A stretch of DNA of 64,000 bases from Haliotis rufescens (taxonomy: Eukaryota). Below, piece after piece: positions 1,755 to 64,000 of this stretch (position 1 is the stretch's first letter; each line of letters starts with the position of its first letter). Both the position numbers and the translations under genes were made by a program. The notes under the pieces were generated by a model. The model was given only the letters and a program-made list of their open reading frames with translations, had not been told where the DNA came from and did not search any database. The DNA lies in the NCBI RefSeq assembly GCF_023055435.1, contig NW_025963779.1, positions 83,886,001 to 83,950,000 on the forward strand, given 5' to 3'.

Positions 1755-1988
1755 ACCCCCGTGTACATCCGGGTAACAATAGGTCTTCAGCAACACATGC
1801 TTGTCGTAAGAGGCGACTAATGAGATCGGCTGACTTGGTTGATGCACGTCATCGTATCCCAATTCGATGCTCATGATGTCAATCACTGGATTGTCTGGTC
1901 CAGAATAGATTATTCACAGGCCGCAGTCACATATTACTGAGTGCGGTGTTAAACAACAAACAAACAAACAAACGAATAACCAAACAAA
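1755..1988 (+). mobile_element. Retroposon family C (non-tRNA head), diverged copy with a single hairpin
   Basis: CCCGTG..ATCCGGGT..GGTCTTCAGCAAC..GCTTGTCGTAAGAGGCGACTAA head, shared body and tail, (AAAC)n end. tcaagcat repeated on both flanks. Confidence 0.85.
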
Positions 1989-4796: not shown

Positions 4797-5057
4797 GACC
4801 CGTGAGGATCCGGGGTTGAATCGGTCTTCAGCAACCCATTCTTGTCGTGAAAGGCGACTATGCGTGTTGTAAGAGGCGACTAACGGGATCGGGTGGTGAT
4901 GCTCCCTTGGTTGATGCATGTCATCGTATTCCAATTGCGTGGATCGATGCTCATGATGTCAAACACTGGATTGTCTGGTCCCGCCTCGATTATTTAAAGA
5001 CCGCCGTCGTATAGCTGGAATATTGCTGAGTGCGACGTTAAACAATAAAGATACAAA
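4797..5057 (+). mobile_element. Retroposon family C, double-hairpin variant
   Basis: Starts GACCCGTGAGGATCCGGGG; two tandem (T)GTCGTAAGAGGCGACTA-like units; tail gctggaatattgctgagtgcgacgttaaac. Confidence 0.88.
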
Positions 5058-16226: not shown

Positions 16227-16396
16227 TTGTTTGTTGTTCCCTGTTTAACGTGCAACTCATCAATATTCCAGTTATATGACGGCGGTATACGATAATGGGA
16301 TACGATTGACATGCATCACCCACGTCAGCGAGTCTGACCACAGGATCCCGTAAGTCGTCTCTTACGACGAAAATGGGTTGCTGAAGACCTTTTCTA
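16227..16396 (-). mobile_element. Retroposon family C, internally deleted
   Basis: Reverse complement reads GGTCTTCAGCAACCCATTTTCGTCGTAAGAGACGACTTACGGGATC, followed by the tail. Confidence 0.8.
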
Positions 16397-16524
16397 TTAA
16401 TGCACTATTCATTCTCACGCTACCTCATCGCATTCACGATCTGGGTTCGATTCCATTCATTAAAAACCCATTTTTGCTGTCCCCTGCCGTGAGGAACATT
16501 TCGAAAGTCACCGCAACGGATTAA

Positions 16525-25197: not shown

Positions 25198-28100
25198 TGG
25201 GAGGGTAACAGGGGAGTGAGATGTTTGTGTGTGAGGGAAACGTGAGTGAGATGTTTGTGTGTGAGGGTAACAGGGGAGTGAGATGTTTGTGTGTGAGAGT
25301 ACCAGGGGAGTGAGATGTTTGTGTGTGAGAGTACCAGGGGAGTGAGATGTTTGTGTGTGAGCGTAACAGGGGAGTGAGATGTTTGTGTGTGAGGGTAACA
25401 GGGGAGTGAGATGTTTGTGTGTGAGAGTACCAGGGGAGTGAGATGTTTGTGTGTGAGGGTAACAGGGGAGTGAGATGTTTGTGTGTGAGGGAAACAGGGG
25501 AGTGAGATGTTTGTGTGTGAGGGTAACAGGGGAGTGAGATGTTTGTGTGTGAGAGTACCAGGGGAGTGAGATGTTTGTGTGTGAGGGAAACAGGGGAGTG
25601 GGGTGTTTGTGTGTGAGGGTAACAGGGGAGTGAGATGTTTGTGTGTGAGGGAAACAGGGGAGTGGGGTGTTTGTGTGTGAGGGTAACAGGGGATTGAGAT
25701 GTTTGTGTGAGAGGGTAACAGGGGAGTGGGGTGTTTGTGTGTCTGAGAGTACCAGGGGAGTGAGATGTTTGAGTGTGAGGGTAACAGGGGAGTGAGATAT
25801 TTGTGTGTGAGGGAAACGCGAGTGAGATGTTTGTGTGTGAGGGTAACAGGGGAGTGAGATGTTTGTGTGTGAGGGAAACAGGGGAGTGGGGTGTTTGTGT
25901 GTGAGGGTAACAGGGGAGTGAGATATTTGTGTGTGAGGGTAACAGGGGAGTGAGATATTTGTGTGTGAGGGTAACAGGGGAGTGGGGTGTTTGTGTGTGA
26001 GGGTAACAGGGGAGTGAGATATTTGTGTGTGAGGGTAACAGGGGAGTGAGATGTTTGTGTGTGAGAGTACCAGGGTAGAGTGAGATGTTTGTGTGTGAGG
26101 GTAACAGGGGAGTGAGATGTTTGTGTGTGAGAGTACCAGGGGAGTGAGATGTTTGTGTGTGAGGGTAACAGGGGAGTGAGATGTTTGTGTGTCAGGGAAA
26201 CGTGAGTGAGATGTTTGTGTGTGAGGGTAACAGGGGAGTGAGATGTTTGTGTGTGAGGGAAACAGGGGAGTGGGGTGTTTGTGTGTGAGGGTAACAGGGG
26301 ATTGAGATGTTTGTGTGAGAGGGTAACAGGGGAGTGGGGTGTTTGTGTGTCTGAGAGTACCAGGGGAGTGAGATGTTTGAGTGTGAGGGTAATAGGGGAG
26401 TGAGATATTTGTGTGTGAGGGTAACAGGGGAGTGAGATATTTGTGTGTGAGGGTAACAGGGGATTGAGATGTTTGTGTGAGAGGGTAACAGGGGAGTGGG
26501 GTGTTTGTGTGTCTGAGAGTACCAGGGGAGTGAGATATTTGTGTGTGAGGGTAACAGGGGAGTGAGATATTTGTGTGTGAGGGAAACAGGGGAGTGAGAT
26601 ATTTGTGTGTGAGGGTAACAGGGGAGTGGGGTGTTTGTGTGTGAGGGTAACAGGGGAGTGAGATATTTGTGTGTGAGGGTAACAGGGGAGTGAGATGTTT
26701 GTGTGTGAGAGTACCAGGGTAGAGTGAGATGTTTGTGTGTGAGGGTAACAGGGGAGTGAGATGTTTGTGTGTGAGAGTACCAGGGGAGTGAGATGTTTGT
26801 GTGTGAGGGTAACAGGGGAGTGAGATGTTTGTGTGTCAGGGAAACGTGAGTGAGATGTTTGTGTGTGAGGGTAACAGGGGAGTGAGATGTTTGTGTGTCA
26901 GGGAAACAGGGGAGTGGGGTGTTTGTGTGTGAGGGTAACAGGGGATTGAGATGTTTGTGTGAGAGGGTAACAGGGGAGTGGGGTGTTTGTGTGTCTGAGA
27001 GTACCAGGGGAGTGAGATGTTTGAGTGTGAGGGTAATAGGGGAGTGAGATATTTGTGTGTGAGGGTAACAGAGGAGTGAGATATTTGTGTGTGAGGGTAA
27101 CAGGGGATTGAGATGTTTGTGTGAGAGGGTAACAGGGGAGTGGGGTGTTTGTGTGTCTGAGAGTACCAGGGGAGTGAGATATTTGTGTGTGAGGGTAACA
27201 GGGGAGTGAGATATTTGTGTGTGAGGGTAACAGGGGAGTGAGATATTTGTGTGTGAGGGTAACAGGGGAGTGGGGTGTTTGTGTGTGAGGGTAACAGGGG
27301 AGTGAGATATTTGTGTTTGAGGGTAACAGGGGAGTGAGATGTTTGTGTGTGATAGTACCAGGGTAGAGTGAGATGTTTGTGTGTGAGGGTAACAGGGGAG
27401 TGAGATGTTTGTGTGTGAGGGTAACAGGGGAGTGAGATGTTTGTGTGTGAGAGTACCAGGGGAGTGAGATGTTTGTGTGTGAGAGTACCAGGGGAGTGAG
27501 ATGTTTGTGTGTGAGGGTAACAGGGGAGTGAGATGTTTGTGTGTGAGGGAAACAGGGGAGTGAGATGTTTGTGTGTGAGGGTAACAGGGGAGTGAGATGT
27601 TTGTGTGTGAGAGTACCAGGGGAGTGAGATGTTTGTGTGTGAGGGTAACAGGGGAGTGAGATGTTTGTGTGTGAGAGTACCAGGGGAGTGAGATGTTTGT
27701 GTGTGAGGGAAACAGGGGAGCGGGGTGTTTGTGTGTGAGGGTAACAGGGGAGTGAGATGTTTGTGTGTGAGGGAAACAGGGGAGTGGGGTGTTTGTGTGT
27801 GAGGGTAACAGGGGAGTGAGATGTTTGTGTGAGAGGGTAACAGGGGAGTGAGATGTTTGTGTGTGAGAGTACCAGGGGAGTGAGATGTTTGTGTGTGAGG
27901 GTAACAGGGGAGTGAGATGTTTGTGTGTGAGGGTAACAGGGGAGTGAGATGTTTGTGTGTGAGAGTACCAGGGGAGTGAGATGTTTGTGTGTGAGAGTAC
28001 CAGGGGAGTGAGATGTTTGTGTGTGAGGGTAACAGGGGAGTGAGATGTTTGTGTGTGAGGGAAACAGGGGAGTGAGATGTTTGTGTGTGAGGGTAACAGG

Positions 28101-28998
28101 GGAGTGAGATGTTTGTGTGTGAGAGTACCAGGGGAGTGAGATGTTTGTGTGTGAGGGTAACAGGGGAGTGAGATGTTTGTGTGTGAGGGAAACAGGGGAG
28201 TGAGATGTTTGTGTGTGAGGGTAACAGGGGAGTGAGATGTTTGTGTGTGAGATTACCAGGGGAGTGAGATGTTTGTGTGTGAGGGTAACAGGGGAGTGAG
28301 ATGTTTGTGTGTGAGGGAAACAGGGGAGTGGGGTGTTTGTGTGTGAGGGAAACAGGGGAGTGGGGTGTTTGTGTGTGAGGGAAACGGGGGAGTGGGGTGT
28401 TTGTGTGTGAGGGAAACAGGGGGGTGGGGTGTTTGTGTGTGAGGGTAACAGGGGAGTGGGGTGTTTGTGTGTGAGGGAAACAGGGGAGTGGGGTGTTTGT
28501 GTGTCAGGGAAACAGGGGAGTAGGGTGTTTGTGTGTGAGGGAAACAGGGGAGAGGGGTTTTTGTGTGTGAGGGTAACAGGGGATTGAGATGTTTGTGTGA
28601 GAGGGTAACAGGGGAGTGGGGTGTTTGTGTGTCTGAGAGTACCAGGGGAGTGAGATGTTTGTGTGTGAGGGAAACGGGAGTGAGATGTTTGTGTCAGAGG
28701 GTAACAGGGGAGTGAGGTGTTTGTGTGAGGGAAACATGGGAGTGGGGTGTTTGTGTGTGAGGGAAACAGGGGTGTGGGGTGTTTGTGTGTGAGGGAAACG
28801 GGGGAATGGGGTGTTTCTGTGTGAGGGTAACAGGGGAACGGGGTGTTTGTGTGTGAGGGAAACGGGGGAGTGGGGTGTTTGTGTGAGGGAAACATGGGAG
28901 TGGGGTTTTTGTGTGTGAGGGAAACAGGGGAGTGGGGTGTTTGTGTGTGAGGGAAACAGGGGAGTGGGGTGTTTGTGTGTGAGGGAAACGGGGGTGTG
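25198..28998. repeat. 32-bp G/T-rich minisatellite (gtgagatgtttgtgtgtgagggtaacagggga) with a 644-bp higher-order repeat
   Basis: Period 32; variant markers recur every 644 bp. Confidence 0.97.
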
Positions 28999-29007
28999 GT
29001 TTTCCTA

Positions 29008-29765: not shown

Positions 29766-30319
29766 CGACACCCGCATCGAACCATTAATCCACGTATCTG
29801 GTGTTCTCCTTCTCTATCAGCCTACAACCGGTGGAACGCCCAATGTCATCTCGTTTGCTTTCACGTCTACCAGCATTGACAAAGCCAGCGATCTACTTGA
29901 TGGGTTATACGAGGAGGGGCATTTACGAGTGTCAGCACAAATTATCACTCTGACTGCAATCATATCTGAATCCTGTACCTTCACCCGCCTGATTTATGAT
30001 TTTAAAAACGCAGTGTGTTTGGTTTTCTATTATCCACGTTAATCCCGTCGTTCCGTCACAAACATTGTAAACTTTGGCAATAAAAGTTGTCTTCAAAGTA
30101 ACTGTCTCGTCAGTGTCGGCTTTCGACTCGTTCTCGGTATCATTACGTCGTAGAAAGACAATTGTCGGAAGGGCCCGTTTTGAAAATGTGGCATAGTTTT
30201 TCATCTAAATCATCCCTATTCCCTCAGTTGTGACGACGCATTGTATTGTAGATTGGAGCCTTCACCTAGCCAGTGTTGGTTGTAGTTTATGGCAGATTTT
30301 AAAGTGCACGTAAGAACGA

Positions 30320-32230
30320 AAGTGTGGTTTAATAAAATTACCTGTTGGAGGGGCTCCCAGGAAGGAAATAGGTCAGGAAAGAATGAAAGTGTCGTTTAAT
30401 AACATTCCCTGTTGGAGGGGCTTCCCAGGAAGGAACTAGGGAATGTAAAAAAGAAAGTGTCGTTTAATAACATTACCTGTTGGAGGGACTCCCCAGAAGA
30501 AACGAGGGCATGTAAAAAAGAAAGTGTCGTTTAATAACATTACCTGTTGGAGGAACTCCCCAGGAAGAAACGTGGGAATGAAGCAAAAAAGCGCTTTTTA
30601 ATAACATTATCTGTTGGAGAGGCTCCCCAGGAAGAAACGAGGGAATGTAAGAAATAAAAGATCCTTTTAATAACATTCCCTGTTGGAGGGGCTCCCCAGG
30701 AAGGAACGAGGGAATGTAAAAAAGAAAGTGTCGTTTAATAACATTACCTGTTGGAGGGACTCCCCAGTAAGAAACGTGGGAATGTAGCAAAAAAAGCGCT
30801 TTTTAATAACATTCCCTGTTGGAGGGGCTCCCAGGAAGGAACAAGGGAATGTAAGAAATAAAAGATCCTTTTAATAACATTCCCTGTTGGGGGTAGACCC
30901 CAGGAAGGAACGAGGGAATGTAAGAAGGAAAGTGTCGTTTAATAACATTTCCTGTTGGAGGGACTCCCCAGTAAGAAACGTGGGAATGTAGCAAAAAAAG
31001 CGCTTTTTAATAACATTCCCTGTTGGAGGGGCTCCCAGGAAGGAACAAGGGAATGTAAGAAATAAAGTGCCGTTAATAACATTCCCTGTTGGAGGGACTC
31101 CCCAGAAGAAACGAGGGAATGTAAAAAGAAAGTGTCGTTTAATAACATTACCTGTTGGAGGGACCCCCCAGAAGAAACGAGGGAATGTAAAACAGAAAGT
31201 GTCGTTTAATAACATTCCCTGTTGGAGGGGCTCCAAGCAAGGAACGAGGGAATGTAAAACAGAAAGTGTCGTTTAATAACATTACCTGTTGGAGGGGCTC
31301 CAAGCAAGGAACGAGGGAATGTAAAACAGAAAGTGTCGTTTAATAACATTACCTGTTGGAGGGGCTCCAAGCAAGGAACGGGGGAATGTAAAACAGAAAA
31401 GTGTCGTTTAATAACATTACCTGTTGGAGGGACTCCCCAGAAGAAACGAGGGAATGTAAAACAGAAAGTGTCGTTTAATAACATTACCTGTTGGAGGGGC
31501 TCCAAGCAAGGAACGAGGGAATGTAAAACAGAAAGTGTCGTTTAATAACATTACCTGTTGGAGGGGCTCCAAGCAAGGAACGAGGGAATGTAAAACAGAA
31601 AGTGTCGTTTAATAACATTCCCTGTTGGAGGGGCTCCAAGCAAGGAACGAGGGAATGTAAAACAGAAAGTGTCGTTTAATAACATTACCTGTTGGAGGGG
31701 CTCCAAGCAAGGAACGAGGGAATGTAAAACAGAAAGTGCCGTTTAATAACATTACCTGTTGGAGGGGCTCCAAGCAAGGAACGAGGGAATGTAAAACAGA
31801 AAGTGTCGTTTAATGACATTACCTGTTGGAGGGGCTCCAAGCAAGAAACGAGGGAATGTAAAACAGAAAGTGTCGTTTAATAACATTACCTGTTGGAGGG
31901 GCTCCAAGCAAGGAACGAGGGAATGTAAAACAGAAAGTGTCGTTTAATAACATTACCTGTTGGAGGGACTCCCCAGAAGAAGCGAGGGAATGTAAAACAG
32001 AAAGTGTCGTTTAATAACATTCCCTGTTGGAGGGGCTCCAAGCAAGGAACGAGGGAATGTAAAACAGAAAGTGTCGTTTAATAACATTACCTGTTGGAGG
32101 GACCCCCCAAGCAAGGAACGAGGGAAAGTAAGAAATAAATAAATCATCATTTGATAACATTCCCTGTTGGAGGGGCTGAACAAGTGCATGTAAGAAAGAA
32201 ATCGTCGTTTTATAACATTACCTGTTAGAG
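30320..32230. repeat. 67-bp minisatellite (aataacattacctgttggaggggctccaagcaaggaacgagggaatgtaaaacagaaagtgtcgttt)
   Basis: Period 67-68; trimeric superstructure on the left and degenerate edge units. Confidence 0.97.
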
Positions 32231-32481
32231 TGACATAAACAAACGCCAACATTACAACATTTCATACATGTCATTTACCGCAACGCCAAACATTAAGATG
32301 GGACACCTGTACCCTATTACACTATCGGTAGCAATAAGCTGTAGCGTATATACTCACGTGACTGAATACTCCCAATCGATCACCAATATAATCTGCCAAC
32401 GCCTAATGGCATGCGTGTCATGTTACTTCAGTAATTATTGTCATTTATCATAAACTTTTAAAAAAGTGAGTGCGCTCAAAT

Positions 32482-37289: not shown

Positions 37290-38139
37290 TTCATTAAGAG
37301 TACAATTGTGCGATGGAGGGAGGTACGAATACAAACAAGCGTTGTTCTGTTTAAGGAAAATACATTTTTCAAGGCTGGCATTTTAAACGAAAACCCCAGC
37401 GTGAAATAGGTCGTACTCGATCAACATTGACTTGCGATATTTCAAAATTATTTTTTTTATGTAATGCGTGTATGGATGCTTCATAAAATACAGAGAAAAA
37501 CTGGTGATATAATGACAGTCACAATTAGTCATGGTAGGAATTGATAATATCTGCCCTTTCAAAATGTCATTCGCGTCCCATTTGCACTGAACACTTTGTC
37601 ATTTGAGGTCCAGTATTCAAAAATATCAACAATATACGTTAATATTAATAAATGCCATTTATAAGGTACTCAGAGGAATTTGGTTTGGGAAAAACACCTC
37701 GAGTATAATACATAAAGAATATTCATGTATCAAAACAAAATGAAATTAAAATAAAATTAACAGTGATAGGATGACAATAAAATCGAACGTGAAGCAATCC
37801 CTCTTCTTCTTGTAAGATACATGTATGTAAGGGCCGTCGTGTTGAAAGCAAGGCAAGAGACGAAAATAGGGACGTTTCATCTGCCGTGAGTTGATATGAC
37901 CAACTCGCATTAATTCTGTGACAACAAAGGCACCAGACAGTGTCCCCTGGTGATGTCGACAGAAACCTATATAAGATTAGCCTCAGAGGAGGGTAGATAA
38001 TTTTCAGATTTAAAGACCGACCACTGGAGCTGAGTGTTGTGGGTGAGTTGGGTTCAACGCCGCTTTTAACAGTATCAGAGGTTTGACAGTCTGACTGTGG
38101 TGGCTGATGCCCACTGGTTGTGTGAAGATGGGGATAGGT

Positions 38140-40975
38140 ACATTGGTTAATGTGATGGTGGTGATAAACGTTGGTTGGTGTGATAGTGATGTGCACTGGT
38201 CGGTGTGATTGTGATGATTGTGGCTGTGGACATAGGTTGGTGTGATTGTGACGGTGGACATTGGTTGGTGTGATTGTGGCTGTGGACATAGGTTGGTGTG
38301 ATTGTGACGGTGGACATTGGTTGGTGTGATTGTGACGGTGGACATAGGTTGGTGTGATAGTGGTGTGCACTGGTCGGGGTGATTGTGGCGGTGGACATTG
38401 GTTGGTGTGATAGTGGTGTGCACTGGTCGGGGTGATTGTGGCAGTGGACATTGGTTGGTGTGATTGTGGCTGTGGACATTGGTTGGTGTGATTGTGATGT
38501 GGACATTGGTTGGTGTGATTGTGATGGTGGACATTGGTTGGTGTGATAGTGGTGGTGGACATTGGTTGGTGTGATTGTGGCTGTGGACATTGGTTGGTGT
38601 GATTGTGGCTGTGGACATAGGTTGGTGTGATTGTGACGGTGGACATTGGTTGGTGTGATTGTGGCTGTGGACATAGGTTGGTGTGATTGTGACGGTGGAC
38701 ATTGGTTGGTGTGATTGTGACGGTGGACATAGGTTGGTGTGATAGTGGTGTGCACTGGTCGGGGTGATTGTGGCGGTGGACATTGGTTGGTGTGATAGTG
38801 GTGTGCACTGGTCGGGGTGATTGTGGCTGTGGACATTGGTTGGTGTGATTGTGATGGTGGACATAGGTTGGTGTGATTGTGGTGGTGGACATAGGTTGGT
38901 GTGATTGTGGCGGTGGACATAGGTTGGTGTGATTGTAGCGGTGGACATTGGTTGGTGTGATTGTGGTGGTGGACATTGGTTGGTGTGATAGTGATGGTGG
39001 ACATTGGTTGGTGTGATTGTGATGGCGGATTTTAGTTGGTGTGATTGTGGTGGTGGAAGTTAGTTGGTGTGATTGTGGCGGTGGACATTGGTTGGTGTGA
39101 TTGTGATGGTGGACATTGGTTGGTGTGATTGTGATGGTTGAAGTTAGTTGGTGTGATTGTGGTGGTGGAAGTTAGTTGGTGTGATTGTGGCGGTGGACAT
39201 TGGTTGGTGTGATTGTGGTGGTGGAAGTTAGTTGGTGTGATTGTGATGGTAGAAGTTTTGTGGTGTTATTGTGGTGTGGACATTTGTTGGGGTGATTGTG
39301 GTCGTGGACATAGCTTGATGTGATTGTGGTGGTGGACATAGGTTGGTGAGATAATGATGTGGACATTGGTTGGTGTGATTGTGATTGTGGAAGTTAGTTG
39401 GTGTGATTGTGGTGGTGGAAGTTAGTTGGTGTGATTGTGGCGGTGGACATTGGTTGGTGTGATTGTGGTGGTGGAAGTTAGTTGGTGTGATTGTGATGGT
39501 AGAAGTTTTGTGGTGTTATTGTGGTGTGGACATTGGTTGGGGTGATTGTGGTCGTGGACATAGCTTGATGTGATTGTGGTGGTGGACATAGGTTGGTGAG
39601 ATAATGATGTGGACATTGGGTGTTGTGATGGCGGTGTGGTTGGTGTGGTGCTGGTGGACATTGGTTGGGGTGATAGTGGTGGTGGACATTGGTGGGTGGG
39701 GGCGGTGTGATGGTGGACATTGGTTGGGGTGATAGTGGTGGTGGACATTGGTTGGGGTGATAGTGGTGGTGGACATTGGTTGGTGTGGTGCTGGTTGACA
39801 TTGGTTGGTGTGGTGCTGGTTGACATTGGTTGGGGTGATAGTGGTGGTGGACATTGGTTGGGGTGATAGTGGTGGTGGACATAGGTTGGGGTGATAGTGG
39901 TGGTTGACATTGGTTGGGGTGATAGTGGTGGTGGACATTGGTTGGGGTGATAGTGGTGGTGGACATTGGTTTGTGTGGTGCTGGTGGACATTGGTTGGGG
40001 TGATAGTGGTGGTGGACATTGGTTGGGGTGATAGTGGTGGTGGACATTGGTTGGGGTGATAGTGGTGGTGGACATTGGTTGGGGTGATAGTGGTGGTGGA
40101 CATTGGTTGGGGTGATAGTGGTGGTGGACATTGGTTGGGGTGATAGTGGTGGTGGACATTGGTTGGGGTGATAGTGGTGGTGGACATTGGTTGGTGTGGT
40201 GCTGGTTGACATTGGTTGGTGTGGTGCTGGTTGACATTGGTTGGGGTGATAGTGGTGGTGGACATTGGTTGGGGTGATAGTGGTGGTGGACATAGGTTTG
40301 GGTGATAGTGGTGGTTGACATTGGTTGGGGTGATAGTGGTGGTGGACATTGGTTGGGGTGATAGTGGTGGTGGACATTGGTTGGTGTGGTGCTGGTGGAC
40401 ATTGGTTGGGGTGATAGTGGTGGTGGACATTGGTTGGGGTGATAGTGGTGGTGGACATAGGTTGGGGTGATAGTGGTGGTGGACATTGGTTGGGGTGATA
40501 GTGGTGGTGGACATTGGTTGGGGTGATAGTGGTGGTGGACATTGGTTGGGGTGATAGTGGTGGTGGACATTGGTTGGGGTGATAGTGGTGGTGGACATTG
40601 GTTGGGGTGATAGTGGTGGTGGACATTGGTTGGGGTGATAGTGGTGGTGGACATTGGTTGGGGTGATAGTGGTGGTGGACATAGGTTGGGGTGATAGTGG
40701 TGGTGGACATTGGTTGGGGTGATAGTGGTGGTGGACATTGGTTGGGGTGATAGTGGTGGTGGACATTGGTTGGGGTGATAGTGGTGGTGGACATTGGTTG
40801 GGGTGATAGTGGTGGTGGACATTGGTTGGGGTGATAGTGGTGGTGGACATTGGTTGGGGTGATAGTGCTGGTGGACATTGGTTGGGGTGATAGTGCTGGT
40901 GGACATTGGTTGGGGTGATAGTGGTGGTGGACATTGGTTGGTGGGGGCGGTGGGGGCGGTGTGATGGTGGGCAAT
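38140..40975. repeat. 28-bp G/T-rich minisatellite (ggacattggttggggtgatagtggtggt)
   Basis: Period 28; heterogeneous left part, homogeneous right part. Confidence 0.97.
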
Positions 40976-43893
40976 GGTTCGGTGGAGTTAGACCTACATT
41001 AGACACTGTATTATTAATTCTGGTGCTTGCACTCTGATTTAGAAAAAAAACTGCTTTAGAAATCAAATCACTTTCAGGGTGTCCTTTGTTATTGAAATTG
41101 ACCTGTCTTCGCGTCGATGTGATGCCGGAAGTAAATATTATCTTATTCAAGCGGTGTCTGTTCCCTGTTGCTATAACGAGTGTATATGTTAATATAATTC
41201 AGTTCTGAAATTCTGAATCGAATCCAAGGCTTTTATCATTCAAAGCCATGTTAACCAAAGTCTGGCTACAAATGGTGCGACGTCAAACCTGTCTAGTGAC
41301 ATCAACAGAGGGCCCGCCTATTCATATCAGACTTTGGAATTCCGGAAGCGTTAGGATATCGTTATTCATTCACTGTTTGCAATTTCCGCACCCGGATCGG
41401 CACGGTCATAATGAAATGTTTCGCCATTTTCCGAGTAAACACAGTTTTAGATGAACTATGTCCCGTCATGAGACAAAGACTGATAGCTGGCTTAAGACGG
41501 AATGTTTACGATTACTGAATCAATATAATATTTGACGAAATGAAAAAATGCAATTTCAGATTGTAATCCACATTTTGGGAGTTGGGACATGTTGATTGCA
41601 CTTGAGAAGCTTGTCTTGACGCAATCTGGTGATTTTACGAAAATATTACATTTTGGCGGAATTGTAATAATACATTATTGCTTAAATGTATTGAGAATAT
41701 TAAATTTCTGAGTACTCAGCGGTCATAAAGCGAACGTTTATTGAATGCGACGGACATTAAACGCTGTTCGTCTCAGTAAAGATACGCACTGTTTATTACG
41801 TCAAGAAGAATCACACTTCGTCATATTTGGATAAGGTGGCAGAATAGACGATAAAATTGTTCCCAAAATTCCACTGGGTGAACAACCCTTTCCTGAAAGA
41901 CTAAAGGTAGATAATCGCTCACTTGAAATCTCATGCTGATAAAGGTGACGTCATTCGTGTCAATTTTAAACATTAATGAATCCTTTAACACATATACCGT
42001 TACAGGGTGCTAGTAATCGGTCTAATCGTATATATCGGACCACTTATGGCAATAATGCGGAAACGATCAAACTGTCTGTTTCACGAGAAAAATATGCAAT
42101 TATTACAAAATTCGTGAATCTCTTCGTTAGCACGATACATAGCTGATCACTCGTTCAAACACCCGAGATCTTTTTCAACGCAGCACAAAGGAGAAATAAA
42201 TAAAAATCGATTCCGATTCAGACATGGGTTCCAAGTTTTCCATCGAGGATTTAGTCCGATATATTTCCATAATTGCCTCTTGTTTGGAAAGAGGTACTGT
42301 CGGCACTAATCAAGCGGACGCGAGTGGATACTGAAAGCTGGAATGGTGATAGCTGAAACGAAAGCGGAAAACGGCCGATTCATTAACGTTGGCATTTTCC
42401 TTTAAATCCCTTGTCGTCTGTCGATCTATATGCTTTATCCCGTAGATGTTTCCTAATGTAATTTTTCAGATGGGAAACAAAATATATTGAGAGTGGGGGA
42501 TCGTAGAGGGAGCGGGCCGTTTAAAGAGCAACAATTGCTAAAAGCAGATAAAAACGAACCATGACCTTCTGGTTATTTCCGCGTGCAATAAAAGTAGGAA
42601 TTACAGAATTTACAGCCACAGGCAAATCTCGTATTATGAAGTATTCGCCAGTTTGGCAATTAGCGTAGAATGGTTTCGCCAATTTGTTAGAAAGTCCTTA
42701 TCGATCTCACCACTTCAAAGTCGTCAAATAAAGGCCGAATGTTCCCCTCTGCTACAAGGGTCGTCCTAGACGTGCAATATATACACTCGGAACTCTCTCC
42801 AATACATTGTTCGCCAGCCTTCCGCTACGCTCCGTACTCGGGCTAATGGAGATTTCAATACAAGTCCGCAAATATCAATTTATATCCCAGAGGCATATAG
42901 TAATGACGCCGTTCTATGAAATTAAGTGTGAGATTGTCCTGTTTAGGCACCGGCCTACTCCAAGACCTGTGAAGTTCTGAAAGCCGAATTGAGACTTTAA
43001 GAACTTGGAGGAAGAAGTGGAATAGCGGCGCTTGTCCACAAAGGATTTGGCAAAGGCTTCTCGGAATTTCATCCTTGAAATGGGTACTTGAGTCTTTAAC
43101 GAACAATTTTCATTGAACACACTTAAAAGGGCTCTTAATAACTTCCCTACCACCATCATCTGAACATGCATTTAAAACGCCATGAGGCAGAGGTGATCAT
43201 ATTTGAGTTCATAAACGGCCTTGAGTGAAAATGTCCTCGTGAAATTGGAAGACTGGAATGTGCAATGTGAGCTAGAGTCGGGACATAGCTTACAGCAAGA
43301 CGACCCCGTCTCATAAGTGTCGAACCTCCTTCAAGCCCTTCTTGGTCACTTATCTACGCGAGGTCATTGCTTTTAGACTTCCACGCTAGATTTTGATGGC
43401 ACCACAGACTGACATTTAACCCCTGAAATATAGTTATCTTATTTCAAAATATATATCTACAAGATATAAAAAACATAAAATCCAAATGGAGCCCAGAACA
43501 ATGCTTGGACAATCAAGACTTGCTCAATTATTCAAGATTTCGTTTTTAATTTATTCTCTTGGGTCTGGGAGACAGAATAATGTCACCGCCAATGCCGAAC
43601 TAGGCTAGTCGGCTGTCGCCATGTTGATTATGAACCGGATGTCGATTTCGTAACGCGATTTTGAAGATGTCAGCGTTATAGTGAAGTTATTTCCGAGAGT
43701 TATTTTTATACTTATCTCGCTGTCATATTAAAAAAACAAAGAGCTCAAACAAACGGGTCCTCGAAAATCCACACGAAGCATTTAACAATTAAAACGACGA
43801 ATGGTGTTCGTGAACACCTCCCGGATAACAAATAGCGCCATCGTACATGAGGGTCGATTAAACCTTTGCACACGTATGAGCCCCCATGCATCA

Positions 43894-44336: not shown

Positions 44337-44492
44337 AGTGAGTGAGTGAGCATGGTTTTACGCCGCTTTTAGCAATATTCCCGCCTCGTCATAGCTGGGG
44401 ACACCAGAAATGGGATTCACACCTTGTACCCATGTGGGGAACCGAACCCGGGTCTTCGGCGTGACGAGCGAACGCTTTAACCACTGGGCTAC
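44337..44492 (-). mobile_element. SINE family B
   Basis: Close match to the reverse complement of 48025-48189. Confidence 0.88.
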
Positions 44493-46412
44493 AGATGTAA
44501 TTGAATATTGATACAGTAGTAAAGACTAGAATGGTAAAGTGCCTTGGTTGATGTCGCTACGTACAGAATCTCGCGATTATTGGGAGGGAGAGTCGATTCT
44601 CAATCGCCACGACCCTTGATATCCAGTACTGCAACGTATGAACGCCTTTCACATGGAACGATCGCTTGAGTGCAAACAATTCCTGACCGATCCCTTGTAC
44701 TTCCACACCCGGCTGTGAAAGTACGCTATGGTAATTGTGACTATCGATCCCAGCTTGTCTTTCAACTCATGATATAAGGACTTTCAATCAAGCGGGTCAA
44801 TGAAACAATTCGGATGTATCTTTATAATTGTCACTGTATTAAGTCCAGACTCGATCCAAACACAGATACGTTCGCAGGTGGTAATTAAATTATCACCTTG
44901 TAACGAGCCTTGACGTCCGAGCATATGCTGGTTCGCTTCGGAGACCTCCCTCTGGTCTCAACAGCATGGCGTCGTCATAAAGACAAAACAACAATTAAGG
45001 GTTATGCGTGTTTCAGGGCCCATGAAGTCCATTGCTTCCGCGAGGGGTCAAAACGATGCATACCAAACAGATCACGATAAGGAAAATAATTATTTTGTCA
45101 ACATGCTACCGGCTACTGGCTATCGGGAGAAAGGTTGAGGGAGATCCCGCGCCTTCACGTTTCCGCCGGGATTATGCGAGACGTCATCAGGACATACTAC
45201 AATAAATTGCTGTTTTCGTTTCGGTTTCTCTAACTCTCTTGTGTCAACTTTTTTATGCTCCCTGAAAACATTAGCGGAAGAAGACGACTCCATTTAGACG
45301 CGGGAGAAGATTTCCTCCAATTATCTCCCTTGTTTTTTTTGCCTTTGAAACCATATCCCGCGGACGGTAGTACACCGTGATTTGATAGAGAATGACACTG
45401 CTGAGATACATTGTTACATGCGGCGATATCGTCGAGGCGATTTCCGAGTGGGGTTTCCTTCAAAGATGACCTCCATTGTTGTAAAAAACGGAAAAACCTT
45501 CAGTAGACTGACCCCTATTTAGAAAAGAATATCCACGTGAGTAGCCTCTTTACCCTTAATCCGTGCTGCGACCCCACAGAACGAAGACCGTATTAACTCT
45601 AAGCTAGTTTACCGTGGAGTCCTTTTCTGTTCCTCTTACTGCTAGGTTTGGAAACCATGAAGTAAGACTTTGCAGGAATTCCAAAAGAAAACCTTATCTT
45701 TCGAACCTTGTTTAATGCACGCTTGATGCGGCTTTAAGTCAGCGCGGAGTCTTTTATTTCATTACACAGTGTAATAATGCATCTTGATGAAAAAAAAAGG
45801 AATTAGGAGTCTTGTGTTGAGGCATAGGATGAGATAGTAATGTTTTGTGCGTACTCGAAAAGCCGGACATGTTAGTCACAGCCGGAAAAGGCAACATTTT
45901 TTTTAAAGTTGAAGACTAGTGAATTTGTGAAAAAAGAGGTTTACAATGTCCGCCCAGATCTGTTTAAATGGGAATCGGAATTCCATAAAAGACCTTCCAG
46001 GTCTACAAATAGGAGAGCGCATTATAGTGTCAGGAAGACAGTCATTGGCCGTTTGTTTTAGTATTTTTGGTTGGGTTTGTGTTTATTTATTTTAACATTG
46101 GGCTATCGGATGGTTATAGAACGCTATTGGGGGCACACGCACGTCCAAGTAGTTCATTGTCTGCCTTTAATCTCTTGCTTCTTTGAGTTGGAGTGAGTGA
46201 GTGAGTGATATTCCATCAATATCGATTAGCTTATATCAGTGAGGGGATTCGAACCTTACAGTCAACCGTGACCAGCGAGTGATTAATCCGCTGGGCTAGC
46301 AAACATCCATTGTTTTAGCTGGATATCAGCAAATCCTAATAATAGTGTTGCAGTTAAGTTGAATTAAGACCATCATTCAATTCTATACAAATACTCTAAT
46401 TTTTGTGGACAG

Positions 46413-46632
46413 TTCCGGGTTAGAATTGGTCTTTAGCAACCAATAGTGAGAGGCGACTAATGGGATCGGGTGGTCGGACTCGCTGACTTGGTTGATGCAT
46501 GTCATCGTATCTTAATTGCGAAGATCGATGCTCATGATGTCAATCCAGTCTGGTCCAGACTCGATTATTTACAGACCGCCGTCATAAGGCTGGAATATTG
46601 TTGAGTGCGACGTCAAACAACAACAAAACAAA
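46413..46632 (+). mobile_element. Retroposon family C
   Basis: tccgggttagaattggtctttagcaacc..gaggcgactaatgggatc head, shared body and tail. Confidence 0.85.
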
Positions 46633-47554
46633 AGATTTCATATGGTTTTGCTAACAGACAAAGACGACAATCAGACTCACAGAGGCACTTCGATATATTC
46701 CTGTATTGTTACCCGTGCTAAACAAAAAATCTTTGAACATGTTGCCCTGTATTTCAAGAACCCTTGAACGAGTCAGATCTGGAACCAACGCTCCAGTCAT
46801 TCATCTAGAACAAACCTCTCGCCCTGTGAGGAAACTCTTGAGTTATTCTTGATACGCATGGAGTAATAGAGTGAGTGAGTGAAGGACGGAGAACGCTTGG
46901 TCGTTCTTCACACGTTTTACCACTACTGAGAATCGAACCTAGTCTGCGATGTGACGAACCATCCTAATAACCACCCACAAACTAATCAACCGAAAAGCAC
47001 TGACTGAAAAGATTAACTGGCTTGAAAATCCAACAGAATTAAACTTTAGAAAACCATTGTCGTTGACATCATGTATGTGTGCAGGTTTTTTAAACTTTTT
47101 ACCAACTTATTATAGTTTTCTGACAAAAACTATATTTCAATTTATCAAAAGCAACTCGGTGTTAGGAAATCCAATATTTATATTTCCGTTTCACGTAGTC
47201 GTGCCTAGCAGATGTTGACAAGTGCATATATTGTCCTTTCTCTGACAATGGGGTCGATGCAGTGGGAGAATGAGTAAAACACTATCTGTGTTCCAGGCGG
47301 GGCCCCATGGAGAGAGGCCCTGTTCAAAAGACGTGCAAATTATAATTTTATTGATGAGATGTTTGCAGCTAGAATCTCCCAGAGAACTCTAACAGCCGCG
47401 ATGAAAGCAAGGCAGAGATGACAGGATTTTGACAATGAATTCAGCGACTGTGAAAAAACTTCTAATGGTGGGTAACATGAAATCGGGAAACTATCGATTG
47501 GTGTTAGTACAGTACCGGACAGACGTAGGTAACACTTTTGTTCGGAGTAATGTT

Positions 47555-48024: not shown

Positions 48025-48189
48025 GGGGCGGTCGGGTAGCCTAGTGGTTAAAGCGTTCGCTCGTCACGCCGAAGACCCGAGTTCGATTCCCGACATAGGT
48101 ACAATGTGTGAAGCCCATTTCGGGTGTCCACCGCCGTGATATTGATGGAATATTGCTAAAAGCGGCGTAAAACCATACTCACTCACTCA
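48025..48189 (+). mobile_element. tRNA(Asp)-like SINE family B, full length
   Basis: A box TAGCCTAGTGG; GTCACGC..AGACC.GAGTTCGATTCCC as in tRNA-Asp; (ACTC)n tail. 13-bp TSD ctttcgtttacgg at 48012-48024 and 48190-48202. Confidence 0.93.
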
Positions 48190-49082
48190 CTTTCGTTTAC
48201 GGTCAAAGTCGAATAGTGGCGGTACCTGCCCGACTAAACCCGGAATTTCCCGAGGTGAATATCACAGCTTATGTTCACCGTGTATTGGAGACCTCTCTGA
48301 ATATGACGTCTCTATTTGACGAACAAGTTTGAAACACAGACTGTAGATTGATTTATTTGACAGGAGTGTTAAGTAGCTGACCCGTGCCCTGTATGTGACC
48401 TATCTCGGAATGTAACATCTTGATGTAACTCAAAGAGGGAAAAACTGGTAGAATTTAAACAACTGGGGCGTATCATTGTGTGCTTTTGGTCGCCATGGAA
48501 CCCGCCCCGTTTCTGAGGTGGTATCATTAATCGCCAAGCTATTGAGTTGTGTTTTCTTTTCGTCCGCAATGCTTGTTTGTGCCAATATACGTTACATTCA
48601 CTATCCGCCCTGACGGGGACTTATTAGCATGGTGTCTCGGCTCAGGATCATATTTGTTTCAGAATTCTTCGATGTCACGATCCATGTTTCCCCTCGGAAC
48701 GCCCGTCTCCCTTGTGTGGCATTGTCTGAGTGTTCATAGAAAGGGTTTGCGCATTTGTGGGTATATCTAAGACGGTTGTGCAGTAGCTCAAGTGGTGATC
48801 CTTCGGAATGTTGGACATGATTGTTATATTGTTGTTGTTGGTGGTGGTGTTGTTGTTGTTGCTGCTGCTGTTTATTCGTGTCTATTACTTGGTGAATTGG
48901 GCTTTCCATCTGCATCAAAATCACAATTAATAAGTTTCATCTTTTTCAGACATGATTGGACTATGCATAGACCAGTATATGATGGGACGGCCGAGGGTGG
49001 AAACTGGACTTTTATAGTCAGATGACTCCCTTGCGTATGGAAGATGGCCATTTCCACCCATAAGTTTCTAATGTTAACCATT

Positions 49083-51788: not shown

Positions 51789-52220
51789 GCGGAAGGACAG
51801 CAGGGCTTGTTAACCGTTACTTTGTTCCTGGCGCCCCCTGTCCAGCTGGACTTCCAAGGTTTAATCCGCAAGGATCCCGCAGATACCAAAGCGTTCCGGC
51901 CTCAGATGCTGCCGTAGGCGATGTTCCCGGTGCTGAAGCCTCCGCAGACTGTTTGTGACGCTGTACTCAGTCCTGTCACCGACAAACGCAATCAGATGTA
52001 ACCAGTAATAGAAGACGTCTTATCAGCATCGCCTGCGTTGACTACTCCGCAATGGGGCGCCACCTGCACTTGTAGCCCACCATAGATCTTGTCAGGACCA
52101 ACAGATTCATCTGATGCGATCTGTATCATTAGACAGAACGGGTGGCGTTTGTGTATAAACTGAATTTCCCCTCGAACGACGAGGGTTTTGTGTGCTATGA
52201 ATTGCTTATTAATAATATGA

Positions 52221-52496
52221 GACCCGTGAAGATTCCGTGGTAGAATAGGTCTTCAGCAACCCATGCTTGCCGTAAAAGGTGACTATGCTTGTCGTACAAG
52301 GCGACTAACGGGATCGGGTGGTCAGGCTCGCTGACTTGGTTGATGCATGTCATCGATCCCAATTGCGTGGATTGATGCTCATGATATCAATCACTGGATT
52401 GTCTGGTCCAGACTCGATTATTTACAGACCGCCGTCATATAGCTGGAATATTGCTCAGTGCGGCGTTAAACAACAATCCAAACCAAAACCAAAAAA
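52221..52496 (+). mobile_element. Retroposon family C, complete, double-hairpin variant
   Basis: Begins GACCCGTGAAGA; 14-bp TSD tattaataatatga at 52207-52220 and 52497-52510. Confidence 0.92.
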
Positions 52497-52689
52497 TATT
52501 AATAATATGAAGGGTTGCATTTCTAATGAGTGAGTGAGGTCATGTTGTTTTATGCCGGTGTGGACCGTGTTCCAGCAGTGTCATGGCGAGGATTACCTGT
52601 ATCAATCAGTGTTAAACGTGTGGAATTAAAAGCAACAAAACCCTTTCCATATTCATGAGAAAACAGTTGTACAATTCCGATTTTATTAT

Positions 52690-57578: not shown

Positions 57579-57732
57579 GTGAGTATGGCACCGCTTCTTA
57601 GCAATACTCCAGCAATATTACGTCGGGGGACACCAGAAATGGGCTTCGCACATTGGACCCATGTCGGGAATCGAACCCAGGTTTTCGGCCTGACGAGCGA
57701 ACGCTTTAACCACTGGGCTACCCGACCGTCCC
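57579..57732 (-). mobile_element. SINE family B, full length
   Basis: TSD tcagag(c/t)tgtga at 57567-57578 and 57733-57744 (one mismatch). Confidence 0.9.
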
Positions 57733-57791
57733 TCAGAGTTGTGATCCTCGGTATGTCACGGGGCCATGCACGCGATGGTGGGTCTCGTCCA

Positions 57792-58030: not shown

Positions 58031-58524
58031 CCTGAAATTAAAAATTGTTCTCGGGTCCATTTTGACTTTTCTTTTGATTTAGTGGACACATAATTTGTTC
58101 AAATGAGATAACTTTATTTCTGGGACTAAACGTTAGTCTCGGGACATGCTAGCCGAGGGACGTGAGACATGACCTGAGCATGAGACAAATCAGGTCCAGG
58201 GCACTGCTGCGGTTTTACTGCATTTATCATCATTTATCTAGAAGGTTCGTGCTTTCCACCTCACGATTGGAAACAAATTGGATATATTTTTAAAGCATTC
58301 TTGAAAACATTAAATCTCGTAAATTAGCTAAGGCGCTTTTCTGTCACTGCAATGCAATATAGATATGGTGTCCATGAATAATCATGTCCTGTACAACACA
58401 CGTCCATTTGGAGTTTAGATTCCTGGGTTGAAGAAAAATGGACAGATAAATGGAAATTGACATGCTTTTGTGTATCGATACTTTTGTTTTGAACATGATG
58501 AGTTACGTGTGGCCTCACAATAAG

Positions 58525-58684
58525 TGAGTGAGTATGGTTTTACACCGCTTTTAGCAATATTCCAGCAATATCACAGCGGGGGGACCACAAATGGGCTTCA
58601 CACATTGTAACCATGTCGGGAATCGAACCCGGGTCTTAGGCGTGACGAGCGAACGCCTTAACCACTAGGTTACCCGACCGCCGC
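58525..58684 (-). mobile_element. SINE family B, full length
   Basis: TSD cctcaca(a/t)taag at 58513-58524 and 58685-58696 (one mismatch). Confidence 0.9.
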
Positions 58685-59401: not shown

Positions 59402-60489
59402 AAGTAGTGGCCCCAGCGGTATGCGGCCACTACTGGAGAAATCTTTATTTTCGCCCAGATGATTCTTGGCCCTATATTGTGTTTTTAAAAAGTGCCCAGT
59501 GATCGGGAGTTACCGAACTGGAGCACGGGCAGAATGATAGTATTGTTGTTATGATGCCCATTTAAATATAAACATATCGATTGCAATAAAGTAAATATAA
59601 CTTCCTAATGCTTTTAAGAGATTTACTGCGCTCTTTCAGAATTTCAAAGACACACTGGCAATAAATCCATCAAGATTCCGAGAAATCACTGTTCATCATT
59701 TCAGCCTAAATAACTACATGACGACTTGCAGAAGGAAAGGGCATAAACGTTATCGCTTCGATGGGAGGCAACTCTAGGTCACGTTTCAAACGCTCGCAAG
59801 GGGTCACTTTACAGAGACCTTCAGAAACGCTCTGGTGACTCTTCTGAACAGGAGGGAGAATGAGGTGGATGATGGAGGTTGCGCACGCAACGTTAACAAG
59901 TCACGTGGAAATAATGGCGGTTTCGGGGTTTGGCGGTTCATATGTCCGAAAAAGAGGGCAAGGGAGGGCAAATTTAGCCTGACCAGTCCTGACCACAGTC
60001 TAATTTCAGTCTAACTCCACGCCTGCGGGTATTTTCCGGGGCCGTGTATGGTAGAACATTAATACCCGTATCTGATAACAGATCCGTTCTCGTGTGTCAT
60101 TTTAGTGAGCACTATTACAAACTTAGTGCCGACTTTAAACAAATAATACGAGAGACAGGTGGTCTTGATACGTTGAATTTTGTTGGATAATATGTTCCGA
60201 TTTAACTTTTGTAATTCAAGATCCGTTAACACCAAGATTCGATGGATAGGAATACAAGTCTGGAATTCGTGCCTTGTCTCCGCCATTGTTGCGCTGTGAC
60301 GTATGTGCGCTCTGTTGTCATTAGATCTAAGCAGGTTATATATTACATTGTTTTTGTTTCTGATGAATACAACAAAGCAGTTAAAACAAGCAAAACACAT
60401 AAGAAACTCACTATTCATTGCACATTGCAGATAAGAGGCTCATTGTTGCACTGCACAGTCAATGATATCGGATTCTTCTACATGGACGT

Positions 60490-60708
60490 GACCCGGGATG
60501 GAATAGGTCTTCAACAGGCCATGCTTGTCGTAAGAAGCGACTATGCTTGTCGTAAGAGGCGACTAACGGGATCGGGTGGCCAGGCTCGCTGACTGGTTAG
60601 CGCATGTCATCCTATCCCAATTGCGCTCAATAACCGGATTGTCTGGTACAGACCGCCGTCATATAGCTGGACTATTGCTGAGTGCGGCGTCAAACAACAA
60701 ACAAACAA
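60490..60708 (+). mobile_element. Retroposon family C, double-hairpin variant
   Basis: Starts GACCCG; two tandem TGCTTGTCGTAAGA(A/G)GCGACTA; shared tail with (AAAC)n. Confidence 0.88.
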
Positions 60709-62122
60709 GACGGATGAGGTGTCCATCTAAGGTAGGTCACGTGTTTCCGGCGATGGAGATGTCAGTCACAGATGAGGTCTCGGCGGCTGATGTTACTGGC
60801 TGGGTTTGTGTAGATCTCAACCCGCAGTGACAAATTGCCGTCACTTTCTCCCGGGATCTGTCTGCACCAGAACAGAACGTCAACCCACGAACTACATACA
60901 TATATTTAGCAGTAATTTGATGAAGACAATATTCAGTGATGATTTTGATAACGATATATATCAATAGTTCGAGGTTTCATTTTATATTTGTGTTGTTAAT
61001 AAAAAATATTAAATACGTGGTATTCAAACGTGGTATTAGAATGGGAATTATGTACGTGCAATAAAGTCAAGATCGACATCTGGAAACTAAAGCACTGAAA
61101 GCATCCGAGTTCGTTTGTAACATTGTCTGATGTTGGACATGCATCGATGAGTGCGATCCACTTTTCAAGACAACCGCACAAGTCGCACGGACGGAATAGT
61201 GCTACAAGTTGTTACAGAGAGTACTGAAACGGGGTGCATATAAAACCTGAACTCGTCAAAAAAACGAAATAAGATTTCCAGCCATGTTCAGCATATAGAG
61301 GAACGTCCCCCACCCCCTCTAGGGGCTGACGCTAAACCTATTACACACGGTGGATGAGCAGAATGGCGGTCCCTACACTCTCCGGTGTGTAGACTTAGGT
61401 TTATGTCAGGAAAAAGTGTAAAACTAAACCTAATTAAAATGTCTGCACACATGATAAATAAGCTTCGACGGGAAAACGAATTAGCAGGTCCCTGTGTAAC
61501 GGGGAGAGTGTTATTTCTGTCAGTTAGGCCGCCGACAGTCAGACGCAGTGCTTGTTTTCCAGCGCTTGGCAAGTTTTTTTTCGACGGGATGTCGAATTCT
61601 TGAGTATTTCTCCAGAAGAAAAACAGGATATTTTCTCTCTTTCCCTTCTGTTTCTCAAGGCGCCGTGTTATGATTCTGCCATTTCCAATGTTGATCGATG
61701 GGATGAAATATGCATAGCTAATTTTCTTCTCGTTTGGATTCAATCGATGTTTGCTTTCAAAGACTTCGGCCATACGTCCTCTTGTTTTCACAGAACTCGG
61801 CTTCCATAATATGTTCTGCAGTTTATATCGGATTATGTTTTCAAGTCGTTTTTATTTGTCAAATGATTATTGATACGATTTCCATATTTATGAAACGTAA
61901 ACACTTTGGCCAGGCCTGATGGAAGATGCAGTGGTGCTCAAGTCAGCAGCTTCAGTATCAACCCAAACTTTACCGGACGTGTACCGCTACACTGATGTAA
62001 GTTATGCGCGGTAGTTATAAAACATATGACCTGCGCTATTCCTGGCGTCACATGCAATACTTGTCGAACCAGATCACTCCCTTTTAATATCCATGACAGG
62101 GGCCGGGTTAGTCAAAACGTTT

Positions 62123-64000
62123 TTACAATGTGTGATCTGGCTGACTGGTGTGTACCCCGATTGTGTTGTTGGGTACTGGTTACAATGTGTGATCTGGCTG
62201 ACTGGTGTGTACCCCGATCGTGTTGTTGGGTACTGGTTACAATGTGTGATCTGGCTGACTGGTGTGTACCCCGATCGTGTTGTTGGGTACTGGTTACAAT
62301 GTGAGATCTGTCTGACTGGTGTGTACCCCGATCGTGTTGTTGGGTACTGGTTACAATGTGTGATCTGGCTGACTGGTGTGTATCCCGATCGTGTTGTTGG
62401 GTACTGGTTACAATGTGAGATCTGTCTGACTGGTGTGTACCCCGATCGTGTTGTTGGGTACTGGTTACAATGTGTGATCTTGTTGACTGGTGTGGCATTG
62501 TACCCCGATCGTGTTGTTTGGTACTGGTTACAATGTGAGATCTGTCTGACTGGTGTGGCATGTACCCCGATCGTGTTGTTGGGTACTGGTTACAATGTGA
62601 GATCTGTCTGACTGGTGTGTACCCCGATCGTGTTGTTGGGTACTGGTTACAATGTGAGATCTGTCTGACTGGTGTTTACCCCGATCGTGTTGTTGGGTAC
62701 TGGTTACAATGTGAGATCTGTCTGACTGGTGTGGCATTGTACCCCGATCTCGTTGTTGGGTACTGGTTACAATGTGTGATCTGGCTGACTGGTGTGGCAT
62801 TGTACCCCGATCGTGTTGTTGGGTACTGGTTACAATGTGAGATCTGTCTGACTGGTGTGTACCCCGATCGTGTTGTTGGGTACTGGTTACAATGTGTGAT
62901 CTGGCTGACTGGTGTGTACCCCGATCGTGTTGTTGGGTACTGGTTACAATGTGTGATCTGTCTGACTGGTGTGTACCCCGATCGTGTTGTTGGGTACTGG
63001 TTACAATGTGTGATCTGGCTGACTTGTGTGGCATATACCCCGATCGTGTTGTTGGGTACTGGTTACAATGTGTGATCTTGGTGACTGGTGTGGCATTGTA
63101 CCCCGATCGTGTTGTTTGGTACTGGTTACAATGTGAGATCTGTCTGACTGGTGTGGCATGTACCCCGATCGTGTTGTTGGGTACTGGTTACAATGTGAGA
63201 TCTTTCTGACTGGTGTGTACCCCGATCGTGTTGTTGGGTACTGGTTACAATGTGAGATCTGGCTGATTTGTGTTTACCCCGATCGCGTTGTTGGGTACTG
63301 GTTACAATGTGTTATCTGGCTGACTTGTGTGGCATGTACCCCGATCGCGTTGTTGGGTACTGGTTACAATGTGTGATCTGGCTGACTGGTGTGGCATTGT
63401 ACCCCGATCGTGTTGTTGGGTACTGGTTACGATGTGAGATCTTGCTGACCGGTGTGTACCCCGATCGTGTTGTTGGGTTCTGGTTACAATGTGAGATCTG
63501 TCTGACTGGTGTTTACCCCGATCGTGTTGTTGGGTACTGGTTACAATGTGTGATCTGGCTGACTGGTGTGGCATTGTACCCCGATCGTGTTGTTGGGTAC
63601 TGGTTACAATGTGTGATCTGGCTGACTGGTGTGTATCCCGATCGTGTTGTTGGGTACTGGTTACAATGTGAGATCTGTCTGACTGGTGTGTACCCCGATC
63701 GTGTTATTGGGTACTGGTTACAATGTGTGATCTGTCTGACTTGTGTGGCATATACCCCGATCGTGTTGTTGGGTACTGGTTACAATGTGTGATCTTGTTG
63801 ACTGGTGTGGCATTGTACCCCGATCGTGTTGTTGGGTACTGGTTACAATGTGAGATCTGTCTGACTGGTGTGGTATGTACCCCGATCGTGTTGTTGGGTA
63901 CTTGTTACAATGTGAGATCTGTCTGACTGGTGTGTACCCCGATCGTGTTGTTGGGTACTGGTTACAATGTGAGATCTGTCTGACTGGTGTTTACCCCGAT
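62123..64000. repeat. 57-bp minisatellite (ttacaatgtgtgatctggctgactggtgtgtaccccgatcgtgttgttgggtactgg), running off the window end
   Basis: Period 57, with longer variants carrying gcat/gcatt-type insertions. Confidence 0.97.

Follow-up and report, generated by a model that had tools for sequence, protein, structure and literature searches.

The window, by which we mean the entire 64-kb stretch of DNA analysed here, harbors six copies of one SINE family. The copy beginning at position 52221 is bounded by an exact 14-bp target-site duplication (TSD) that directly adjoins G52221, just as the original prediction described. The copies and the duplication are located as follows:

52221..52496, + strand: whole SINE copy, assigned to the LP-SINE type, 276 bp with its A/C-rich tail
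52207..52220, + strand: 5' TSD, 14 bp, identical to 52497-52510
52497..52510, + strand: 3' TSD, pairing with 52207-52220
1755..1975, + strand: older SINE copy with a single hairpin unit
about 4797..5048, + strand: full-length SINE copy with two hairpin units
16230..16400, - strand: SINE copy, 5'-eroded and with an internal deletion (family match at 16339-16434)
46406..46633, + strand: eroded SINE copy
about 60484..60710, + strand: degenerate SINE copy with deletions in head and body

Forty further genomic copies of the 52221 element scored 96-98% identity. The window copies had been described as starting at or near GACCCG; a fixed start does hold genome-wide, but the GACCCG at 60490 is the chance product of a deletion, the real start of that copy lying near 60484. 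The copies formerly placed at 16227 and 46413 are both eroded at their 5' ends. Several long minisatellite arrays, whose repeat units measure about 57-74 bp, also lie in the window (22939-25089, 25124-28999, 30303-32234, 38089-40982 and 62123-64000).

From its type, its length and a head held in common with Pan_3, we infer that the 52221 element is the Haliotis LP-SINE of PMC4758252. In the available text of that report, LP-SINEs are mollusc elements (Hdi_LP/Hmi_LP, Lsa_2, Oco/Oed_LP and Sgl_LP) that have no tRNA head and combine a LINE-derived head of about 70 bp with TSDs and a tandem-repeat tail. The present element likewise has neither a tRNA nor a 5S head, carries variable TSDs and 3' tandem repeats, and begins with about 70 bp resembling a LINE 5' UTR: the motif recurs in intact LINEs of APE-RT-RNase H type, within their 5' UTRs, in keeping with the LINE relationship proposed earlier for this head. 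The Hmi_LP consensus measures 255 bp, against 256 bp for the 52221 element before its tail, and the snail SINE Pan_3, given in the supplement, has the same head motif (PMC4758252). A tRNA-derived (SINE2) identity was rejected, since no tRNA-like head with A and B boxes was found by ARAGORN or Rfam. ARAGORN returned no genes, and the Rfam tRNA-like matches in the window (48036, 53606 and 58608) all lie on SINEs of other families, as the earlier claim of a tRNA-free head would have it.

The LP-SINE report also noted homology between the head and the 5' end of each of three Repbase LINEs, Nimb-17_LMi, I-3_DR and RTE-9_CPB, which belong to two clades. It put the head forward, as a proposal, as a Pol II promoter, and left to experiment how SINEs and LINEs acquire a precise 5' end without a Pol III head or ribozyme (PMC4758252). 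The available portions of the report are concerned with sequence homology and the promoter idea, and contain no RNA structure, viruses or partner LINE (PMC4758252). The SINE type itself is known from that report. What appears to be new is the fold, its presence in viruses and a LINE module joining an HDV-like ribozyme to the motif, none of the three having been found in Rfam 15 or in the literature searched, outside which most subscription papers and Repbase reports fall.

An internal 19-mer of the SINE has 22,753 exact matches in the 1.33-Gb host genome, and the reversed 19-mer has none. Among 90 copies chosen by the 19-mer alone (the first 90 loci on one contig, C1, including a few duplicates), 60 start at positions 1-3, eight at positions 4-10 and 22 further in, so that the 5'-end plot called for by the original prediction places two-thirds of the copies within 3 nt of one base. 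Upstream of the start, base composition equals background (n=50). The 30 closest copies, a set picked for full length, start at or adjoining the same G, and in many of them TSDs of 9-16 bp abut it.

As RNA, the 70-90-nt head is predicted to form two tandem pseudoknots and a fixed hairpin. In this model the first, H-type knot comprises P1 (3-5 bp), a UG loop, P2 (6-7 bp) and a linker ending in AGAAUA; one base later, a second knot formed by P3 and P4 would enclose GUCG-loop-CGAC and UAA. In the 52221 copy the elements map as follows:

52221..52254, + strand: predicted pseudoknot 1 (P1 and P2; covariation of P2)
52223-52226 with 52236-52239, + strand: P1 of pseudoknot 1, loop UG, with one mismatch in this copy
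52228-52235 with 52248-52254, + strand: P2 of pseudoknot 1, z -9.7
52242-52247, + strand: conserved AGAAUA linker of pseudoknot 1
52255..52312, + strand: predicted pseudoknot 2 (P3 and P4), around the hairpin unit(s)
52255-52258 with 52264-52267 (or 52286-52289), + strand: P3 of pseudoknot 2, z -5.7
52260-52263 with 52309-52312, + strand: P4 of pseudoknot 2, z -5.9, the alignment count not covering this helix
52263..52284, + strand: degenerate first copy of the tandem hairpin unit, present in 30/30 top copies
52291..52308, + strand: conserved hairpin P5, GUCG(U)/(G)CGAC with a purine-rich loop, then UAA; invariant in 20/20 aligned rows, an invariance partly built into the search pattern

Support for the fold comes from covariation. 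A total of 210 motif matches were reduced to 32 clusters and, with the three clusters of the SINE merged and five degenerate singletons left out, to 25 representatives, of which four were replaced and one dropped in the covariation set. Each helix was assessed by the duplex energy of its own versus swapped partner strands over 20,000 permutations. For P2, which pairs the P1 loop with the bases following AGAAUW, no permutation was as good (n=21, P1 not being located in four); the same was true of P3 and P4 across 21-25 families, and in the seven viral sequences alone P2 was equalled in just 8 of 20,000. When 20 families are aligned with MAFFT, five with long linkers being left out, 88% of cells are paired under the proposed fold, against 36-56% in slid controls, and two-sided changes occur at 7/7 P2 pairs and 3/4 P3 pairs, figures to be read with the knowledge that some of the transposon families are related and that the structure was derived from the same sequences. 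P1 is 87% paired and largely invariant; its mismatch in the 52221 copy is common to 11 of the 30 closest copies (a set biased by the query), which have still spread. P4 appears by eye to be weak or absent in three of the seven viral sequences (L248, L314 and L317).

These three covarying helices uphold the idea of a structured, pseudoknotted head, with its pairings in part redrawn. The inner stem proposed originally, (TG)AAGATC/GGTCTT(CA), is supported by both the swap test and the alignment. The outer stem GACCCGT/ACGGGATC fares poorly, with 46.5% of cells paired and a z of -1.7 (1024/20,000), as does the pseudoknot GGGTT/AACC(C), at 37-60% paired with z values of 0.2 and -0.1. Of the proposed hairpin GTCGT-AAGAG-GCGAC, the GTCG/CGAC stem stands, but the loop of the 52221 copy is ACAAG. 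This copy also carries a tandem duplication of the hairpin unit of about 22 nt, a feature that had gone unremarked; copies with a single unit occur as well (1755 in the window, and loci L040, L056 and L057). Nested-only folding, a method that cannot model pseudoknots, gave no significant result for the window copies (z -0.62 and -0.80) and a z of -3.1 for the viral sequence L309. A GNRA-tetraloop reading of the hairpin is broken, by eye, by the loop variants AAAA and AUGA. In one family (L065, L104) a microsatellite-like insertion of about 60 nt occupies the linker of the first knot with pairing kept, and copies at L037, L040, L060, L077 and L331 carry the first knot, or the entire head, repeated in tandem.

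The motif extends well beyond this SINE. The 19-mer was found at 120 or more metagenome loci, which belong to several repeat families that are unrelated to one another and differ in their bodies; in one of these (L084, L121, L128) the motif is followed by a tRNA-like segment. In four families with different first bases, the loop U lies exactly 6 nt 3' of the start, and a fifth motif-starting family begins 5 nt before it (n=8). All five begin with a purine. An extra G at -7 of the A-starting families was seen in just 4/32 and 4/24 copies; since no extra G precedes these families, a cap signature is absent.

Seven GTDB contigs also contain the 19-mer or motif. One of them bears an intact LINE (L324:5980-12045) whose ORF2 encodes a 1238-aa endonuclease-RT-RNase H protein. 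This animal-type LINE occupies one end of a scaffold from a bacterial symbiont and is likely host DNA within the assembly; we take all seven matches to be eukaryotic DNA in assemblies, as is shown for L324 alone.

Many intact relatives of the L324 LINE reside in the host genome. In 14 of 16 full-length LINEs the 5' module is common, with a median identity of 96% across 130 nt, despite a median ORF2 identity of 63% (for example L357:1387-1445 and L631-L646); in the remaining two, a 5' truncation falls within the module. The sequences suggest that these LINE families may recently have swapped 5' modules. The module consists of a minimal HDV-like ribozyme of about 58 nt with the motif directly 3' of it. 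The upstream 57 nt or so match Rfam RF02682 at an E-value of 0.0037, below the gathering score, and P1 with its G-U, L3, GG, GCUAA and P2 can be seen directly. Fourteen of the 16 LINEs begin at the HDV G1, and 13 of those have an 11-14-bp TSD at this base, exactly abutting in ten. Of 886 exact genomic matches to the start of the LINE motif, 849 still have the ribozyme strand upstream, which leaves little room for cutting at the motif's 5' edge in these LINEs. Downstream, the motif lies 400-550 nt ahead of ORF1.

At the other end of the SINE lies a further element in common with the LINEs:

52430..52473, + strand: 3' tail common to the genome's intact LINEs and the window's tRNA-headed SINEs (sequence comparison, BLAST)

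A SINE-like tail is present in six of the 16 full-length LINEs; identity is about 80% across 44 nt with L631, L632, L634 and L635, and 29/32 nt match in L633/L638. Since the tails resemble one another and the TSD lengths agree, these LINEs, bearing the HDV-plus-motif module, likely mobilise the SINE. The tRNA-headed family with the same tail ends in (ACTC)n and is represented at 48030-48190 (+), 58520-58679 (-), 44355-44500 (-) and 57597-57760 (-).

The whole architecture is also found in eight IMG/VR contigs, representing seven distinct sequences. Six are small viral genomes. Four of these have a Pfam match to an RNA-dependent RNA polymerase (RdRp) of tombus-like or toti-like type (RdRP_3 in L314, L316 and L406; RdRP_4 in L309), one (L248/L315) encodes a Peptidase_A21-type capsid, and L218 encodes an S-domain capsid and a 1217-aa ORF (L218:255-3905, - strand). 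This ORF has no match in Pfam or the PDB, so the RNA-virus status of L218 rests on its capsid match and layout. All six have the motif in sense orientation. The distance from the final stop codon to its AGAAUA linker is 25-221 nt, and the contig ends 14-119 nt away; in L218 a second, tandem copy is interrupted by that end. The seventh sequence is a DNA virus of 212,482 bp, perhaps invertebrate iridescent virus 6, in which the motif is intergenic, between ORFs on the same strand. Relaxed viral scans gave matches lacking the knot in 25/33 and 2/10 cases, which we counted as chance. No hairpin stem variant with an upstream knot occurred among the matches listed (122 relaxed).

Covariation and the presence of the motif in RNA viruses together indicate that it acts as RNA. 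Taken together, the findings leave it evenly balanced, in our estimation, whether this is an undescribed structured RNA exchanged among LINEs, SINEs, distant RNA viruses and a large DNA virus, with the SINE carved out by exonucleases and neither promoter nor ribozyme involved. The specific reading that we favor, and to which we give slightly less than an even chance, is that the head fold is an xrRNA-like block to 5'-to-3' exoribonucleases, so that host transcripts are trimmed back to one defined start. SINE copies would be transcribed inside host Pol II transcripts; decay of the Xrn1/Xrn2 type would run to the base of P1 and stall; and ORF2 of the partner LINE would copy the protected, uncapped RNA by way of the tail that both elements have. 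For LINEs, the fold might support the HDV-like ribozyme by shielding uncapped RNA, and in viruses it could yield a short 3' subgenomic RNA or shield the 3' end. Such a block would account for all three placements of the motif: first in the element, where it marks the 5' end; inside LINEs, which keep what lies upstream of it; and in the viruses.

The head resembles known xrRNAs in having a pseudoknot at its 5' edge and a viral position in 3' UTRs or between genes. According to the available text of PMC12397905, viral xrRNAs of classes 1-3 are compact pseudoknots at the start of 3' UTRs or in intergenic regions, sometimes in tandem, which halt Xrn1 at the P1 base and so set the end of the product. 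However, the fold is like no known xrRNA class. Classes 1 and 2 have a three-way junction with a double pseudoknot and class 3 has L2B and J1/2 docking (PMC12397905), whereas the head motif, comparing layouts by eye for class 3, has neither; it has instead two tandem H-type knots and an invariant hairpin, and it occurs in host retrotransposons. The purine at the first base of all five families is more readily explained by transcription initiation than by a stalled nuclease. LINE RNA with a 5'-OH is already a poor Xrn1 substrate, so that the need of the LINE for a second block is conjectural. The invariant hairpin and UAA could just as readily bind a protein or form a catalytic core.

A different role for the fold, which we consider unlikely, would be as a cap-independent translation element or a protein- or ribosome-binding element, IRES-like in LINEs and 3'-CITE-like in viruses; the SINE would then retain it to reach ORF2p, the fixed start coming from some other step. 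The positions of the motif lend themselves to this: ahead of ORF1 in LINEs, behind a ribozyme that leaves uncapped RNA; some 150 nt ahead of an ORF in the DNA virus; and, in tombus-like viruses, within the 3' UTR, a frequent site of translation enhancers. The invariant sequence of the hairpin, with no stem variant among the matches listed, is also what a binding site would have. The equal distance from start to fold in four non-coding SINE families is left unexplained by this role.

A dual DNA/RNA element like trypanosome Pr77, combining an internal Pol II promoter at the first purine with a separate RNA role, seems to us quite improbable. It would account for the purine in 5/5 families, and the head, which makes up the 5' ends of the three LINEs named above, has been proposed as a promoter (PMC4758252, in its available text). 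Against it, the compensatory changes mean selection on RNA pairing, the motif is present in RdRp-encoding viruses without a DNA stage, almost no LINE copies in the genome start at the motif, and the cap-G signal is absent. The first two points likewise weaken the earlier suggestion of a LINE-derived internal promoter as a pure DNA role.

We regard a new small self-cleaving ribozyme, cutting just 5' of G1 and freeing the SINE from host transcripts, as similarly doubtful. It would explain the sharp start; the invariant AGAAUA, hairpin and CUAA could make an active site; domain 2 resembles, by eye, the HDV topology minus P3/L3; and a G-U wobble involving G1 is possible at the P1 base in some copies. 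Linear RNA viruses do have ribozymes in their UTRs, mostly 5' and rarely 3', according to the available text of bioRxiv 10.1101/2024.05.16.594327, so that viral placement alone is compatible with cleavage. However, a cut would separate viral genomes from their 3' ends, and LINEs whose motif is intact and still covarying retain the upstream HDV-like ribozyme, with TSDs abutting its G1 (see above), which also weakens the self-cleavage at the 5' edge raised by the original prediction. Furthermore, the motif had no Rfam ribozyme match at E<=5 or E<=10, although the same search found the HDV-like ribozyme; no other relevant Rfam family matched the head at these relaxed E-values either, and hammerhead, twister, twister-sister, pistol, hatchet and hairpin ribozymes were without a match at E<=5 in the window and 12 diverse loci. 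The judgement that the head lies outside the HDV, twister and hammerhead consensus thus holds. An HDV-like ribozyme as the SINE head itself is dismissed, the covarying helices giving another topology with no Rfam HDV match; compared by eye, HDV, twister and pistol topologies are a misfit.

Short structured modules that define LINE 5' ends and are common to different LINEs are known from the HDV-like ribozymes at non-LTR 5' ends and from Pr77 of L1Tc/Ingi (as cited in PMC5786205 and PMC4758252). The motif differs from the former in having no P3, L3 or P1.1, a true HDV-like ribozyme adjoining it in this genome as a separate module. As in the bipartite non-autonomous elements RIME, NARTc and Bov-A (PMC5786205, available text), both the 5' part and the 3' tail of the SINE are LINE-related; unlike them, it dispenses with the first 58 nt of its LINE (the ribozyme), starts at the motif and has a body of about 120 nt.

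A single module of about 75 nt ties the RNA biology of retrotransposons to that of RNA viruses. It adds a candidate xrRNA scaffold and points to potential decay roadblocks, numbering in the thousands, within host transcripts. If the exoribonuclease block proves true, animal genomes would have their first demonstrated xrRNA, with tens of thousands of copies per genome; should the motif cleave instead, it would represent a new ribozyme class. Small-RNA reads from three runs of a related species are mostly antisense and about 30 nt long, and in these shallow data (9-118 and 0-46 reads) sense-strand 5' ends do not accumulate at the motif. Reads from the SINE body are dominated by a single piRNA-like antisense small RNA of about 31 nt at 52394-52424 of the window (63 reads in run X22).
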